NCBI GenBank assembly: GCA_964016885.1 | Contig: OZ024740.1 | Coordinates: 362,948,001-363,012,000, forward strand | Length of the DNA stretch: 64,000 nucleotides | DNA from: Eledone cirrhosa | Taxonomy: Eukaryota | Direction of reading: 5' to 3' | Shown: positions 18,577 through 58,121 of the stretch, piece after piece | Position numbering within the stretch: position 1 is the first letter of the stretch | How the letters are laid out: each line of letters starts with the position of its first letter | Translations under genes and position numbers: made by a program | The notes under the pieces: generated by a model | Told to the model about the DNA's origin: nothing | The model's input: the letters and a program-made list of their open reading frames with translations, nothing else | Databases searched by the model: none

Positions 18577-19474
18577 TAATGGAAAAAATAACTGAATGCA
18601 ATTGACTTGGATTCCTTGAATACTTTCTGAAATACTTTCTTTTATCAGTTATCAACGATAAACATCAAATATTTGCAAGATCATTCACCCACCCAACGCC
18701 AAGATAAACCAAACAAACAAAGGAGCTTCTATGTGGTCGAACTACCTACATATTGAATGTTACACCACTAACTATATTCATTTGACAATCTACATCAGAA
18801 CCGAGAAGCATTTAATTTTCAAAAATGTGTTGTGCGATCTTTAGAATCGAGGTAAGCTTTGTGTGAGCTGAACCGTCGAATTGGTTTTCAGTTTCCATTT
18901 GACGCCATTTCCCCTTGATTGCTTCAGAGACCTTCCAAACAGAAACATGAACATAACCCAATCTAATTTCATTCTTCCCCTACACTAAACCCACTAAATC
19001 TCGTGTTTTTTACTTATTTTTCATTTATAATCGGATATTTCTGCAAGATGGTTTTCATTTTTTGTCCCTTTGTAGAATATGTAAGTTTAGTTGTATATGT
19101 GTACCGATGTCGATGTTTGGGGGATTAAAAGTCGTAACGTGTGGTTTAAATGTTTTTTTCTTTTTTGCTTTTGTTTATTGAAGTTCTTGTGTCAATTTGT
19201 CTTAGTTTTTGAATACTATTACTGATAAAATTCATAGAATATTTCTTCAAATAAAAGGCCGAGTTAATAACTCATACTGATACCCTGTAATTAACAAGCT
19301 CAAATATAAATACTGAGCATTTTAATAATACATGTAGTAATAAACACAGTAAATCATGTGTCTAAAATTACGAGGGTTGAAATACCACATTTGTTTGAGA
19401 AATTTAATCAGAAGCAAACGGAATATACATAAAATAAAATAAAATTTATACAGACCGCCTCAATAACTATTACA

Positions 19475-19560
19475 TCACCCGGACAGATTAGGGATTTAAT
19501 CTGTTTCGCCCTGAGAATTGTTTTTGTAACAGATAATCCGTGGGCATCATCAGCGAGAGA
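19475..19560 (-). ncRNA. Type I hammerhead ribozyme, inverted copy, intact core
   Basis: Minus strand: TCTCTCG-CTGATGA-T-GCCC...GGGC-GAAA-CAGATTA-aatccc-TAATCTG-TC-CGGGTGA. Confidence 0.88.
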
Positions 19561-19877
19561 ATAGATTAAATTTCTCAAACAAATGTGGTATTTCAACCCT
19601 CGTAATTTTACAACACGACTTACTGTGTTTATTACTACATATATTATTAAAATGCTCAGTATTTATATTTGAGCTTGTTAATTACAGGGTATCAGTATGA
19701 GTTATTAACTCTGCCTTTTATTTGTATTTCGGCTCCCTACTAGGTGAGCTTATAAGTTGAGTGTATTAGGTCATTGTTTCTAGCCAATCCACCCACACCA
19801 CTTTTGACTTCTAGCACACAAGGTGAAATATTCATTCGTGTGGCTTTTGGCTTAGGTGTTTGTTTCATTTAATCTAT

Positions 19878-19963
19878 TCTCTCGCTGATGATGCCCATGG
19901 ATTATCTGTTACAAACACAATTCTCAGGGCGAAACAGATTAAATCCATAATCTGTCCGGGAGA
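19878..19963 (+). ncRNA. Canonical type I hammerhead ribozyme
   Basis: Stem I TCTCTCG/CGGGAGA; CTGATGA 19885-19891; stem II GCCC/GGGC; GAAA 19931-19934; 7-bp stem III CAGATTA/TAATCTG; GTC, predicted cleavage after 19956. Confidence 0.92.
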
Positions 19964-20279
19964 TGTAATAGTTATTGAGACGGTCTGAATATATTTTATT
20001 TTATTTTATGTATATTCCGTTTGCTTCTGATTAAATTTCTCAAACAAATGTAGAATATTTCTTCTTAAGAATTTTCCCATAACTTCTGGTCTGCAGTCGC
20101 TTCCGTTTGTGACATTGTGCAGATTTGATTAGATAAATTGAATAGATTATTGGTCCGGTTATGTTTGGGATAACATGGTATAAAAAGGAAATATTGTCAG
20201 GTGTCCGTAGGTTTAATATACATTAGTTTCTAGTTTTACGTTTATTTTTGTTATGTCTGTATCTATATCTAACAAGCGG

Positions 20280-23208
20280 GGTTTTTCATTGCTGAAATTC
20301 AATGCGAGTTAATTTAGTGTTAGAATGGTGTGTGGATAGTGTGAGTGCGTGTATATATGTACAGGTGGGTGTGTGCGCGGGTGTTAGGAGGACGGGGTGT
20401 TAGTGTTGTTAGTTGGGGGTGGGCCAAGGGGTGGGGTGGTGAAATGGAGGAGTGTGTTAGTGGTGTTAGTGGAGGATGTGTGTGTGGGGGGAAGAGATGG
20501 TGTGTTGTTCGACCGTGAGGCGGTTGGCGGGTGTCCCATGGCATTGGAGCAGGCCACAGACTGTGAGGTGGTGAGCGGAATGTCCAGGGGAGCCGAAGTG
20601 GCGGGCGATGGGGGAACTCCCGCCGAGACGAATATCACGGAGGTGTTCCGTGAAACGATAGGCCAGGCGACGTCCAGTCTGTCCGATGTAGGCTGCGCTG
20701 CACGGAGTGCAGCGAAGTCCATAGACTAGGTTGGAGGAGGTGCAGCAGAAGGCGTGCCGGACAGAGAGAGAGTGGCCGTTGGGACCCTGGAAGGTGTTGG
20801 TGATGTGGGGGCAGGTGTGGCAGCGAGGCCTGGAGCTGGGAAGGGAACGGGGGGCGTAGGGGGTAGGGAGCTGCGGACGAGGAAGGTGCGGAGATTACGC
20901 GTGCGTTTGAAGGAGGGGAGGGGTGAGGATGGCGGAGGTGGAGGGGTCGGACTGGAGGCATCGGAAGTGGCGGAGGATGGTGCGGTGGAGGGGTGCAGTG
21001 GAGGGGTGCGGTGGAGGGGTGGTAGGTGATGGGGAGGGGGACACGGTGGGTGTGCGGTGGCGTGGGGTGAGGGCGGTGGAGCGGTGGACAGCACGGGCGC
21101 GAGTGAAGGCAGTGTGGACGAGGGAGGGGGGTTAACCTCTCCGGATGAAATGGCTGACTAGGGAAAGGGCCTGGGACTCAAAGTCAGCATCTCGGCTGCA
21201 GAGGCGGCGGATCCGGAGGAGTTGGGAGTAGGGAATAGAGTGTTTTGTGTGTGTAGGGTGGGAGGAGGTGAAGTTGAGGTAGGAGTGGGAGTCGGTGGGT
21301 TTGAAGAAGGCGGAGTTGACGAGGGAGCGGTGGGAGGGGGGGTCGATGGGGACGGAGATGTCTAAGAAGTGGACGTGGGTGGTGGAGATAGAGGTGGTGA
21401 AGTGGAGGGAGGGGTGGAAGGAGCAGAAGAAGGAGAGAAAGGAGTCGAGCTGTTCTCGGGTGAGGGTCGTGGCTCCGATACAGTCGTCGATGTAATGATC
21501 GTACAGTTGGGACGTGGGGCCGGTGTACTGGACAAAGATTTGGGTCTCAACATGGCCAACGAAAAGGTTGGCATAGTTTGGGCCCATTCTTGTGCCCATG
21601 GCTACCTCTGTGACCTGTTGGTAAAACTCACCCGAGAAGGAGAAGCAGTTGAGGGTGAGGACCAGCTCGGCGAGGCGAATGAGGGTGGGGTGGAGGGGAT
21701 AGGTGAGGTGCGAAGGTCGAGGTAGTGCCGGAAAGCACGTAGGCTATCGGTGTGGGGGATAGAGGGACTTGATATCTAGGGTGAAGAGGAGAGGGTGTGG
21801 GCCGGGTGGGAAAGTGAGGGAGTCGAACAGGAGTGGGGCGTGGTTAGTGTCGGAGATGTGAGAGGGGAGGGTGGTGATGAGGGGGGGGCGAGGATGGAGT
21901 AAAGAAAGGCGGAGATGAATGAGTTCGGTGGGGCAGTTGCAAGCGGAGACGATGGGGCGGCCGGGGTTGTCGGGTTTGTGGAGTTTAGGGAGGAAGTAGA
22001 TAGTGGGGGTGCGGGGGGTGCGGACAATGAGTTGGGAAGCGGTGGGAGGGAGGAGGGAGGAGGAGACAAGGTGTTGGATGGTGGAGGAAACTTCTTGTTG
22101 GTATAGGGGTGTAGGGTCGGAGGGTAGAGGGCAGTAGAAGAGGGAGTTACGGAGCTGCCTGAGGGCTTCGGCCGTGTAGAGGTCAGCGCGCCACACCACC
22201 ACGGCGCCTCCCTTGTCCGCCCATTTAATGACGATGTCATCTCGGCTACGGAGGGAGCGGAGAGCGAGCAGTCCGCCCGTGTGATGCTATGTCGGTTGGA
22301 ACGGTGGCGGAAGTCGAAGCGATTTACTGCGCTACGGCAGGCGTCGACGAACGTGTCAAGGGTGCTAAATTGCCCTGGTGCCGGCGTCCGAGACGATGGT
22401 CGTCGGCCCAGGGCGAGAAACGGGTCTGGGGAGTTCGGAGCCGGTGGGGTTTGATGAAAATGTGCCTGTAGCTTCGTGCGTCGTACGAATCGTTCGACTT
22501 CCGTTCGGGTGCGGAACTCGTCGCTGTGCGGAGTGTGGGGTAAGAAGCGAAGGCCTCTACTGAGGAGTGAACTCTCAGTTGCGGAGAGGGGGAGGTTATG
22601 GGATATGGTGACAACAAATGGGAGGCGGGTGTGGGTGCGGTTTGGGTGTTGGCAGGGGTGGGGGAAGGAGACGTTGGGTGGAGGAAGAAGCGGAGGGGGA
22701 GGTGTGGAAGTGTAGTCGGAAGCCAAGGGGGATGAGGTGGAGGTGGAGGAAGCGGCTGAGGATGTGGCTGGAATGCCGGGTTTTGGCGAAGAGAAGGTAG
22801 GAGAGTTGGAGGGCCGACAGGGTGGGAGGAGGGAGGTGAGGAAAAGTTTAAGGCGGGTGTGGAGTTGGTGGAGAAAGGATTTAAGGCTGGGCATGGTGGG
22901 CGTGGAGTTAACGCAGGGGAGGAGGGGGAGGGGGGGGACAAAGGGTAAGTGCAAAAAGGGTAGACAGAGACGGGGGAGGGAAAATCAAAACAAAATTATC
23001 ATAAGGAGGTGAAAGTATACACAGGAAATCATAGACAAAAATTCATGAGCAGAAATAAACAGTAAAATATCAAGAAATAATACAATAGAATAGAAAAAAA
23101 ATAAACAAGGAAAGAAAAGGTTTGTGGGAGAGTTTGGGGAAAGTTCAGAGGTCGGTCACAGCGGATTAAATCGGGGTTGAGCCGGTGATGAAGGTGGTAT
23201 TCCAAGGT

Positions 23209-25284: not shown

Positions 25285-25810
25285 ATAATAATAAATTTGA
25301 TAACTAAAATCCAAAGAGGGCTCGATAAGGATAAATATATATCAAATATATAAGAACCGTAGAGCAAATATTTATTAAAATAACAGATTACAGTTTAAGC
25401 AAAGAATCGCTGCTTTCACCTTTAACGGGATCTTCTGAAACTAACAAAGTCAATCTGTGAACGCAGAAGTGAATATTTCAAAAAACGTTGCAACCGGAGG
25501 AAGACAGGAAGACGATACTTTGGTTCGTGGAAACGTTCCCTGGCAAAGAACGGGAAAGAACGAATATAATACGTCATTATTTGGAGCGGTGAAAAACAAT
25601 TACACACAAAGACAAAACCACGTTTATGGTATAAAAGAAGTCGTAGACTAATATTCTATTAGGTGGTTCATAGAGACGTTCTCTGGCAATGAACGGAAAA
25701 AACGAAGAAAATACGTCATATGTGGAGTGGGGAGAACAATTGCACGCAAAGACAAAACCACGTAAATGGTATAGCAGAAGTCGTAGACTAAAATTCTAAC
25801 TAGGAGACCG
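25283..25810. mobile_element. Unclassified (TA)n-associated repeat family with an internal direct duplication of about 145 bp; fragments also at 23270-23400, 33505-33670 and 46735-46845
   Basis: ATTAAAATAACAGATTA(A/C)AGTTTAAGCAAAGAATCGCT and CCAAAGAGGGCTCGATAAGGATAAAT are shared among the loci, some in locally inverted form. Confidence 0.75.
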
Positions 25811-27259: not shown

Positions 27260-27450
27260 AGGGCGGTGGATTGGCAGTATCGGTAGAGAGTGGGACGCCA
27301 TGCTTTCCAGCATAGTTACGTCCCTTTACGGTCTGAGTTCAAATCCCGCCGAGGTTCACTTTGCTTTTCATCCTTACGGGGTCGATAAAATAAAGTACCA
27401 GTAATGTACTGGGTAATTGCTGGCCTTGTACCAAAAGTAGAAACAATTAT
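27260..27450 (+). mobile_element. Full-length SINE family A
   Basis: GGGCGGTGGATTGGCAGTATCGG (A box), GAGTTCAAATCC (B box), TTTCATCCTTACGGGGTCGATAAAATAAAGTACCAG core, GTAGAAACAATTAT tail; TATATACCA(A/G)GATA on both flanks. Confidence 0.92.
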
Positions 27451-38447: not shown

Positions 38448-39080
38448 CGGTGGATTGGCAGAATTGTTAGATCATCAGACAAAATCTATTGTAGCATTTA
38501 GTTATAGCCCTTTATGTTATGAATTCAAATCCCGCCGAGGTTAGCACTGCATTACATCCTTACGAGGTCGATAAAATAAAGTACCAGTCACGCACTGGGG
38601 TCAATTTGATCCACTTTCTCCTCCACCAAAATTGCTGGCTTTGTGCCTATATAAGAAACCATTATTATTATGTATGAGGGCGGTGGATTGGCAGTATCGG
38701 TAGAGAGTCGGACGCCATGCTTTGACGCATAGAGTTACGGCCCTTGCCATTCTGAGTTCAAATCCTGCCGAGGTTAACTTTATCTTTCATCCTTTCGGGG
38801 TCGATAAAATAAAGTACCAGTAATGTACTGGGTACTTGCTGGCCTTGTGCCAAAAGTAGAAACAATTATTATGTAGGAGGATCATTAGAGCGTCGGATGA
38901 AATGCTTTGCGGTATTTGTTCCAATACTTTATACTTTAAATTCAAACCCACCGAAGTCAACTTTACCGTCCATCCTTCTGAACAATATAAAATAAAGTAC
39001 CAGACAAATACTACGGTCGATGTAATTGACTTTTCCCACCCATCAAAATTCCTCGCCTTGTGCCTAGATTAAAAATTATC
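38448..39080 (+). mobile_element. Head-to-tail array of 3 family A SINEs
   Basis: Heads at about 38448, 38678 and 38880; each has a GTTCAAAT-like B box and the ATAAAATAAAGTACCAG core. Confidence 0.88.
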
Positions 39081-52477: not shown

Positions 52478-52985
52478 TATCAAATAATTGTTTCTACTTT
52501 TGGCACAAGGCCAGCAAATACCCAGTGCATTACTGGTATTTTATTTTATCGACCCTGGAAGGATGAAAGGCAAAGTTAACCTCGGCGGGATATGGTAGTT
52601 ATTACGGGATTTAATCGCCATAATTGTTTATTGCATAATATATATTTCTGTTATATGGTTATTCGTGTGACTTCTTCAGATTGCATAACTGCACCAATGA
52701 TTGTGTGAGTATCTGACGAAGTCACATGAATAACTGTGTAACAGAAATATATATTGTGAAATAAACAATTATGGTGATTTAATCCCGTCTTAACTACCAT
52801 TGGCAGTATCGCTAGAGGGTCGGAGGCCATGCTTTCTAGCATAGTTACGTCCCTTTACGGTCAGAGTTCAAATCCCGTCGAGGTTAACTTTGCCTTTCAT
52901 CCTTACGGGGTCGATAAAATAAAGTACCGGTAATGCAATGGGTAATTGCTGGCCTTGTGCCAAAAGTAGAAACAATTATTTGATA
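52478..52985. mobile_element. Fold-back whose arms each contain an HHR-like motif fused to a family A SINE
   Basis: HHR-like motifs at 52632-52685 (minus, CTGAAGA...GAAATATATATT) and 52708-52760 (plus, CTGACGA...GAAATATATATT); SINE at 52483-52591 (minus) and 52800-52980 (plus). Confidence 0.75.
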
Positions 52986-56839: not shown

Positions 56840-58121
56840 CTAGCATTAAAGCCCGGCGTTGCTCGAGGTCATTAAGTTACCAAAGTTAGGTTGCACCACC
56901 CATTTTATGGCAGCACTTTTTTGTCTGCCAGGCATTGGGTGAATGAATTGTAGACCTGGAAGCAGGAGCTGCGCCAGCAGTGACAATTGTAGTTTCGCCT
57001 ATGGATATTATCTCTGTGCAAAAAAGTTATGAAATTTATTGTTTCACAGTACTTGGGCAACACGCGCGTAGACGATGCCAGCCGAACAACAGAGCTGCGA
57101 TGGAGTTGTTCTGCATGGTTGTCTGTGTATTTTCTAAATTTAAGACAGTAGGGAGGGTTGTGATATGAGGGAGAGTTAGCTGTTGTTTCTAGCAGGTTTA
57201 GTGACCTCATAGAGGATATGTGTTTTCTAAATTTAAGACAGTAGGGAGTGGTGTGATATGGAGGAGAGTTAGCTGCTGTTTCTAGCAGGTTTAGTGACCT
57301 CATAGAAGATATGTTTTCTAAATTTGAGACAGTAGGGATGGGTGTGATATGGGGGAGAGTTAGCTGCTGTTTCTAGCAGGTTTAGTAACCTCATAGAGGA
57401 TATGTGTTTTCTAAATTTAAGACAGTAGGGAGTGGTGTGATATGGAGGAGAGTTAGCTGCTGTTTCTAGCAGGTTTAGTGACCTCATAGAAGATATGTTT
57501 TCTAAATTTAAGACAGTAGGGGGGGTAGGGGGGAGAGTTAGCTGCTGTTTCTAGCAGGTTTAGTGACCTCATAGAAGATATTATTGTTTATCATTATCTA
57601 TAAAAGGCAGATTGTTGTTGTTGTTGTTGTTGAAGTGAGTGTGTGTTTGTATGCGTTTGGAAAAGAGGTTTTAAAAAAGTTTTATCGCTTGTTGTTGAAT
57701 AAATGTATCTGTTGCTTTTGAATAATTGTCGTTTCGTATGAAATGTAATAATTTGAAGTATAAAAGAGAAAGTAGCAAAATGTGTGGGTTGTAGATAGAG
57801 GTTGGCAGATGATATGAGAGAATAAAACGGACAGTATCACCATCAAGCTTGGAAAGAGAAAGTAGCAGAAAGTATGTAGTTGTATAGAATTTGAATGGTA
57901 GTGGAAAGAGTTAGCAGTTTAAATGACAGAGAAAAATCGTAAAATATTGAGTTTTATCTATTTTTTGCGTAATTGTGGGTGAAATTGAAAAAATTACCTG
58001 TGCCAAGACGCAAACGAAATTATTTCGAATACTGAATTGTAAATTTCAATTGAAGAAATTCTATATCGTAGATTTCTATAAGAAAGGAGCATGACCATAC
58101 ACTGAGCTTTATAGATTATGA
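56840..58121 (-). mobile_element. Non-autonomous Helitron with an internal tandem array
   Basis: Minus-strand 3' end CTCGAGCAACGCCGGG-CTTTAATG-CTAG|T; 5' end TCATAATCTATAAAGCTCAG; AT target, no TSD. Confidence 0.7.
57130..57581. repeat. Tandem array of 5 units of 91-93 bp
   Basis: TTTTCTAAATTT(A/G)AGACAGTAGGG starts at 57130, 57223, 57314, 57407 and 57498. Confidence 0.95.

Follow-up and report, generated by a model that had tools for sequence, protein, structure and literature searches.

The window analysed here, a 64-kb stretch of the Eledone cirrhosa genome, contains an 802-bp insert (19249-20050) that splits an old host repeat. The insert consists of two back-to-back arms derived from one 465-nt unit, numbered here so that u1 is position 19564, and it includes the following features.

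19007..20350, no strand assigned: old host repeat split by the insertion, with copies elsewhere about 66-72% identical
19235..19248, no strand assigned: left target-site duplication (TSD), 14 bp, present as a single copy at paralogous empty sites
19249..19571, minus strand: inverted arm, u305-465 followed by u1-160, with its outer end at fixed site B (u161-164)
19298..19318, minus strand: inverted copy of hairpin 1 (GCTC..TGAGC), called from sequence and family pairing
19475..19560, minus strand: inverted copy of a type I hammerhead that keeps its core but has lost one helix I pair, with the cut predicted at 19482/19481
19564..19571, no strand assigned: 8-nt microhomology joining the two arms
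19564..20050, plus strand: plus arm, one 465-nt unit and 22 nt more, with its outer end at u22 and not at the usual site A
19644..19649, plus strand: site A (u81-86), a frequent, TA-rich arm end
19654..19674, plus strand: hairpin 1 (u91-111), starting 5-10 nt 3' of site A, a predicted priming signal
19725..19727, plus strand: site B (u162-164), a frequent arm end
19732..19749, plus strand: hairpin 2 (u169-186), located some 5 nt beyond site B on its 3' side, a predicted priming signal
19878..19963, plus strand: type I hammerhead with an 8-bp helix III and an extended helix II, its cut predicted to fall after 19956
20051..20064, no strand assigned: right TSD, 14 bp, a perfect match to the left copy

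The duplicated sequence, TAGAATATTTCTTC, matches at 14 of 14 positions and has no third occurrence in the window. The host repeat has 24 other matches; nine other copies were fetched, and in six of them the left and right flanks are contiguous, with a spacing in two (L219 and L220) that fits exactly one copy of the TSD. These paralogous empty sites establish that the 802-bp element is a true insertion with a genuine TSD. Its longest stop-to-stop frame is 84 aa, in agreement with the first-pass annotation, which had described a perfect 14-bp duplication around an insert lacking a credible open reading frame (ORF). The proposed architecture was also recovered: the plus segment is u1-465 plus u1-22, and the inverted segment, which differs from a doubled unit at 13 of 322 columns, runs through the unit end into about 160 nt of the unit start. 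The microhomology at the junction was real but had been measured one base short, at 7 nt; it is GATTAAAT, 8 nt. Compared for signs of two separate templates, the arms differ from each other at the family-polymorphic positions u384 and u417 and show no difference at linked markers. Three contig sets from one sample, possibly the source sample, contain many divergent copies and a contig that spans the right junction.

The core of the plus-strand hammerhead is made up of CUGAUGA (19885-91), GAAA (19931-34), and GUC, with the predicted cut directly after it. Helix I has 7 bp, helix II has 4 bp and an extension, and helix III comprises A15.1-U16.1 plus 7 bp. When this segment is folded in isolation, the active three-helix structure is the minimum free energy (MFE) fold (z = -1.92, with 7 of 200 shuffles equally good). 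In the inverted copy, an A-to-U change disrupts a helix I pair and the MFE fold differs from the active one (z = -1.14). Both copies had been considered canonical; the core is indeed kept in both, but the inverted copy has lost a pair and its MFE structure departs from the active one. Because an Rfam scan at E<=1 returned no hammerhead family (and one chance miRNA match), the hammerhead call draws on motif, fold, and conservation across the family.

Among 100 distinct family copies, the core columns are 97% conserved compared with 90% overall. The common substitutions within helices I-III are one-sided and keep pairing, and two-sided covariation is almost absent. The core is kept in 63 of 97 distinct copies, and in 50 of these 63, A15.1-U16.1 is followed by an uninterrupted run of 7 or more pairs. 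Loop III has been swapped (AAUCCA, GGGA, and others, with GGGA in a sister subfamily) around a constant 7-bp stem. The higher conservation of the core, the pairing-keeping substitutions, and the exchange of loop III on the same stem argue, at the level of sequence comparison, that the ribozyme is under constraint across the family. A pairing between loop II and loop III (GGAUU/AAUCC) was also considered; the alignment allows it, but no two-sided changes back it and it would use bases of the helix II extension, so we do not claim it. The conserved 8-bp helix III is unusual among animal hammerheads, in which this helix usually has 1-2 bp; long versions are described for the monomer-active type I hammerheads of fungal and protist Penelope-like elements (PLEs) (Cervera and de la Pena, 2014; PMC4209133). 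Self-cleavage of the unit transcript is predicted. When the whole unit is modelled as a circle, helices I and II do not form (probability 0.0), whereas helix III and both hairpins do, so cutting would need to be co-transcriptional.

Searching the genome with the unit gave 2119 first-look candidates, 40 of which were scored, with 126 matches. An exact hammerhead pattern has 718 matches genome-wide and a pattern across site B and hairpin 2 has 204, compared with 0 for the reversed control in each case. Across subfamilies, identity spans about 95% down to 72%; all of them keep one and the same non-coding unit, which has a GC content of 34%. The 465-nt unit is thus a dispersed, protein-free repeat family, as the initial description of a dispersed ORF-less hammerhead repeat had anticipated. 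The family is new, and its kind (animal non-LTR retrozyme or non-autonomous PLE) is already known. We found no literature on cephalopod retrozymes; paper supplements, which could list the family, and repeat databases (Repbase, Dfam) lay outside the scope of this search.

Other tandem repeats were seen in passing. Two hammerhead-like arrays on the same contig, with 484-nt and 523-nt units (L259:1051-2221 and L260:1639-3509), are 98-99% homogeneous; they have no BLAST match to the 465-nt family and were ruled out as members. The window itself holds a 93-nt repeat (57126-57581, 5 copies) and a 140-nt repeat (25521-25798, 2 copies).

Family-wide, the outer ends of the arms are fixed at two sites 80 nt apart, and the inner ends are variable. 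Among 104 arms of at least 45 nt from 59 loci, 94 have outer ends at u76-90 or u154-166, a count that may include up to nine ends (at u86) created by SINE-made breaks. The first-pass annotation had expected varied permutation start points, and this holds for the inner ends but not for the outer ones. Layouts were compared over 98 loci (de-duplicated by their central 80-mer; counts are approximate). Two arms pointing outward are present at 63 loci, 44 of which have one end of each class, and the other 35 have a single arm or another layout. Either arm may be the longer one. Both end classes are followed, a few bases further 3', by a GCTC..TGAGC hairpin with a conserved outer stem; subfamilies differ in the inner stem of hairpin 2, and no two-sided covariation was found in either hairpin. 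Two fixed ends, each before such a hairpin, are the Penelope 'tail' signature.

Most copies lie in (TA)n, and 86 of the 98 loci are bordered by a simple repeat on one or both flanks. In the window copy, the left end is of the B class and the right end, at u22, is unusual. Duplications of 13-14 bp outside microsatellites were also found at L015, L090 (one mismatch), and L198. Overall, a TSD scan was positive at 5 of 98 loci and in 26 of 970 mismatched controls, about twice the chance level.

A separate observation concerns a 184-nt SINE-like repeat, which lies inside 21 of the 98 family loci, nearly always antisense and at u86|u87, at site A (L014:1897-2080, L025, L080, L185, and others). It also occurs in the window at 27262-27445, 38679-38864, and 52799-52974, with 17 BLAST matches. 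We take its boxes to be of tRNA type; ARAGORN detected no tRNA in it. Truncations and duplications of this repeat vary between loci, including differing 5' truncations, which rules it out as an inherited part of the unit and indicates repeated, independent insertion at site A. Such recurrence reflects either a strong target preference or the use of a nick made there.

We conclude, with a probability of roughly 0.8, that the insert is a copy of a protein-free repeat, likely a non-LTR retrozyme copied in trans by the reverse transcriptase (RT)-endonuclease of a PLE, likely of the Hydra clade. In the mechanism we propose, source loci with at least two hammerheads on one strand would be transcribed, the monomer-competent hammerhead would free a 465-nt monomer, and a host ligase would close the circle. 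A PLE protein could then bind both hairpins and make a target cut staggered by 13-14 nt; from each target 3' end, cDNA synthesis would start slightly 5' of one hairpin, by a few bases. These cDNAs would meet back to back and be joined at a short microhomology. For the window copy, the left arm would have been primed at site B and the right arm off-site, at u22, in a non-TA target; the arms would since have diverged by about 4%. A more specific version, which we put forward tentatively, is that the 465-nt circle, excised by a monomer-active hammerhead and then held in a non-cleaving fold with two exposed hairpins, may be all that a Hydra-type Penelope enzyme needs as substrate; a cut staggered by 13-14 nt would prime a cDNA before each hairpin, and the two cDNAs would roll around the circle and fuse.

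Several observations bear on the form of the template. Arms continue past both the end of the unit and the cut site, which indicates that it was head-to-tail, a point on which the window arm and the family arms agree with the original interpretation. The cut site is crossed by 67 of the 104 arms at the 59 loci, and twice by four of them, although our queries favour such arms. Of the 120 inner ends at 60 back-to-back junctions, 7 fall in the bin that holds the cut site; this is no enrichment, and RT run-off there was not seen. Given the read-through and this lack of enrichment, templates must have been uncut or religated. Rolling reverse transcription had been suggested earlier; the head-to-tail component stands, but two separately primed arms fit better than one rolling cDNA.

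Copies longer than one unit are informative in this respect. A close relative of the window copy (L027) is a 1.9-mer, and sister subfamilies include 2-2.8-mers and a 5.6-mer. Young dimers can be near-identical (0 of 230 differences in L256, 1 of 228 in L254), and agreement at polymorphic sites is 343/404 (85%) within an insertion compared with 26516/35579 (75%) between loci. Repeated passes within one insertion carry the same subfamily variants. At L002 (1341-2136) the arms differ at the linked markers u5 and u457, which suggests that this single insertion used two different RNA templates. We lean slightly toward a circular template over an uncut linear multimer in general; for the window copy, a linear transcript of several units would serve just as well. 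Each strand of this copy carries a single hammerhead, so double cleavage could not free a monomer from it, and it is probably a dead-end offspring.

These considerations bring into play the most serious competing account, in which the family is a PLE passenger that makes no circles: uncut linear transcripts of tandem arrays would be copied, unequal exchange would renew the arrays, and the hammerhead would trim transcripts or be idle. We regard this as a real but minority possibility. The 5.6-mer array at L258 (1070-3731; G000:C1:42756869-42759530), built from a 472-nt sister unit, has an ABAB variant pattern in which units 1 and 3 are identical (0 of 472 differences) and unit 2 is a recombinant of units 4 and 0. 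The pattern and the recombinant unit indicate that this array grew at the DNA level, and linear multimers would therefore be renewable; the other 2-2.8-mers point the same way. Uncut RNA was, in addition, the dominant substrate reported for an anole PLE in vitro (PMC11167929). Against this, long arrays are rare, with a single case among the 120 distinct loci examined and their extension, and the extra units of L258 bear a helix II-breaking change, found in four units. A tandem pattern of the window subfamily type gave 3 matches, none of them consecutive. Purely linear copying would be expected to lose one unit per round because copies stop before hairpin 2, and the ribozyme core and helices are conserved across subfamilies.

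A different account would make the copies 5'-truncated ends (pLTR plus tail) of an unfound autonomous PLE, with no independent non-coding replicon. The end geometry is that of PLE stubs, and first-look candidates are far more numerous for the hammerhead and hairpin parts than for the unit middle (2572 vs 467). Arms longer than one unit, however, re-enter the non-coding unit (up to 1.9 units in close relatives, 2-5.6 in sister subfamilies). Beyond hairpin 2, none of 30 position-ordered read-through loci enters an ORF; 26 reach the hammerhead and 4 break off. A PLE ORF running into or out of the unit was likewise found at 0 of 33 and 0 of 34 further loci. The first-pass annotation had named, as one finding that would count against it, a unit that always forms the terminal repeat of an ORF-bearing PLE; no examined locus enters an ORF. 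We therefore consider truncated PLE ends improbable.

Comparably improbable, and marginally more so, is twin priming of a hammerhead RNA by a LINE of the RTE or L1 type, with the TSD and inversion produced by an AP-endonuclease LINE. Twin priming leaves a 14-bp TSD, a 5' inversion, and microhomology, all of which are seen in the window copy, and RTE-like LINE ORFs and an abundant SINE lie near many family loci. The insertions nevertheless lack a 3' tail of poly(A) or simple repeat, the longer arm may be on either side, and the outer end of the inverted arm is fixed at site B family-wide, unlike the variable second priming of LINEs. Finally, inverted repeats are difficult to assemble, but a local DNA rearrangement or assembly artefact is very hard to reconcile with arms that differ at 13 of 322 columns, dozens of loci that repeat the layout, and the existence of empty paralogous sites.

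Returning to the PLE-copied retrozyme that we favour, we infer that the mobiliser is a PLE-type enzyme; integration by such an enzyme, as first suggested, is supported by the two fixed ends, the (TA)n targets, and the inverted arm. Placement in the Hydra clade comes from the (TA)n target bias and the hairpins, with two of many PLE families compared, neither of which matches. These two are a GIY-YIG PLE family found from L003 and a Hydra-type PLE family found from L146 (L092-L120 and L155-L183). Both are young and abundant, with frames of about 780 aa and 97-99% identity among top matches, and the L155-L183 family has the Hydra DKT and RWK motifs. None of the 29 loci examined in either family (the best 30 of 150 scored matches in each case) shares sequence with the unit, and a simple pattern detected no hammerhead in the viewed flanks of L092-L120 and L155-L183. 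Within the window, a broken Penelope/Poseidon-like ORF on the minus strand (20466-22984) ends 400 bp right of the insert and retains RT motifs and GIY-YIG despite several frameshifts and stops. It was ruled out as the partner because it has no similarity to the unit.

Among known systems, the family most resembles the animal non-LTR retrozymes, in which circles were demonstrated for coral, mussel, and axolotl and for which PLEs were suggested as the likely mobilisers (Cervera and de la Pena, 2020; PMC7229834). It shares with them an ORF-less head-to-tail repeat of 34% GC, one type I hammerhead per unit, a range from monomers to multimers, TSDs longer than 4 bp, and PLEs in the same genome. Like them it lacks LTRs, with no terminal direct repeats other than the unit overlap. 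It departs from them in its 465-nt unit (expressed circles of 170-400 nt and repeats of 150-450 bp are given in PMC7229834, and a consensus range of 51-972 bp by Li, Clavereau and Pollet, 2026; 10.64898/2026.07.22.740005), in its mostly 0.7-2-unit, two-armed (TA)n insertions instead of long arrays, and in its 8-bp helix III. Relative to those retrozymes, the present family is described here from DNA sequence, and the window copy is not a dimer. The 2026 preprint also argues for a PLE origin of vertebrate retrozymes and describes nine Xenopus retrozyme dimers, eight of which failed to cleave (10.64898/2026.07.22.740005).

The insertions also resemble those of endonuclease-positive (EN+) PLEs of the Hydra clade, which are described as having partial tandems, an inverted 5'-truncated arm, a one-sided tail, (TA)n targets, and a hammerhead near the end (Craig et al., 2021; PMC8557442). 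In that account a tandem, inverted, one-sided-tail layout is a property of PLEs more widely, elements of the Hydra and Naiad clades insert into (TA)n, and the hammerhead of Hydra-1_Obim is listed with a 4-bp helix III. Unlike these elements, the 465-nt unit has no ORF, and its tail is 80 nt compared with 30-40 bp (PMC8557442). For the anole Poseidon element PAc, in vitro work identified two RT start sites whose spacing equals the tail (Frangieh et al., 2024; PMC11167929). The 465-nt family is similar in having two predicted internal RT starts that would set the tail and AT-rich targets; PAc differs in being autonomous, with starts in an AC-rich stem-loop inside the ORF and a dispensable hammerhead cut (PMC11167929). 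A large helix III and the lack of an obvious loop 1-loop 2 contact recall the hammerheads of fungal and protist PLEs (PMC4209133), although here the hammerhead lies in an animal non-coding repeat. The green algal element Chlamys MRC1 is likewise non-autonomous, with pLTRs and multicopy head-to-tail insertions, but it has 3' sequence in common with an autonomous partner (PMC8557442). Plant LTR retrozymes, which have a type III hammerhead in their LTRs and a 4-bp TSD, are unlike the present family with its type I fold and 14-bp TSD.

The existing case for mobilisation of animal retrozymes by PLEs is built on their co-occurrence and on similar pLTRs, and not on how the insertions are laid out. 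In the 465-nt family, an ORF-less unit bears the two-start signature of PLEs, and its rare insertions outside microsatellites, such as the window copy, give a measurable 13-14-bp stagger that is hidden in (TA)n targets. With its long helix III, the unit lends itself readily to assays of cleavage and circularisation. If the more specific, circle-based version of our proposal is true, the family would connect retrozymes directly with PLEs and offer a compact system in which to study three unexplained steps of PLE integration: the tail, the inversion, and second-strand synthesis.
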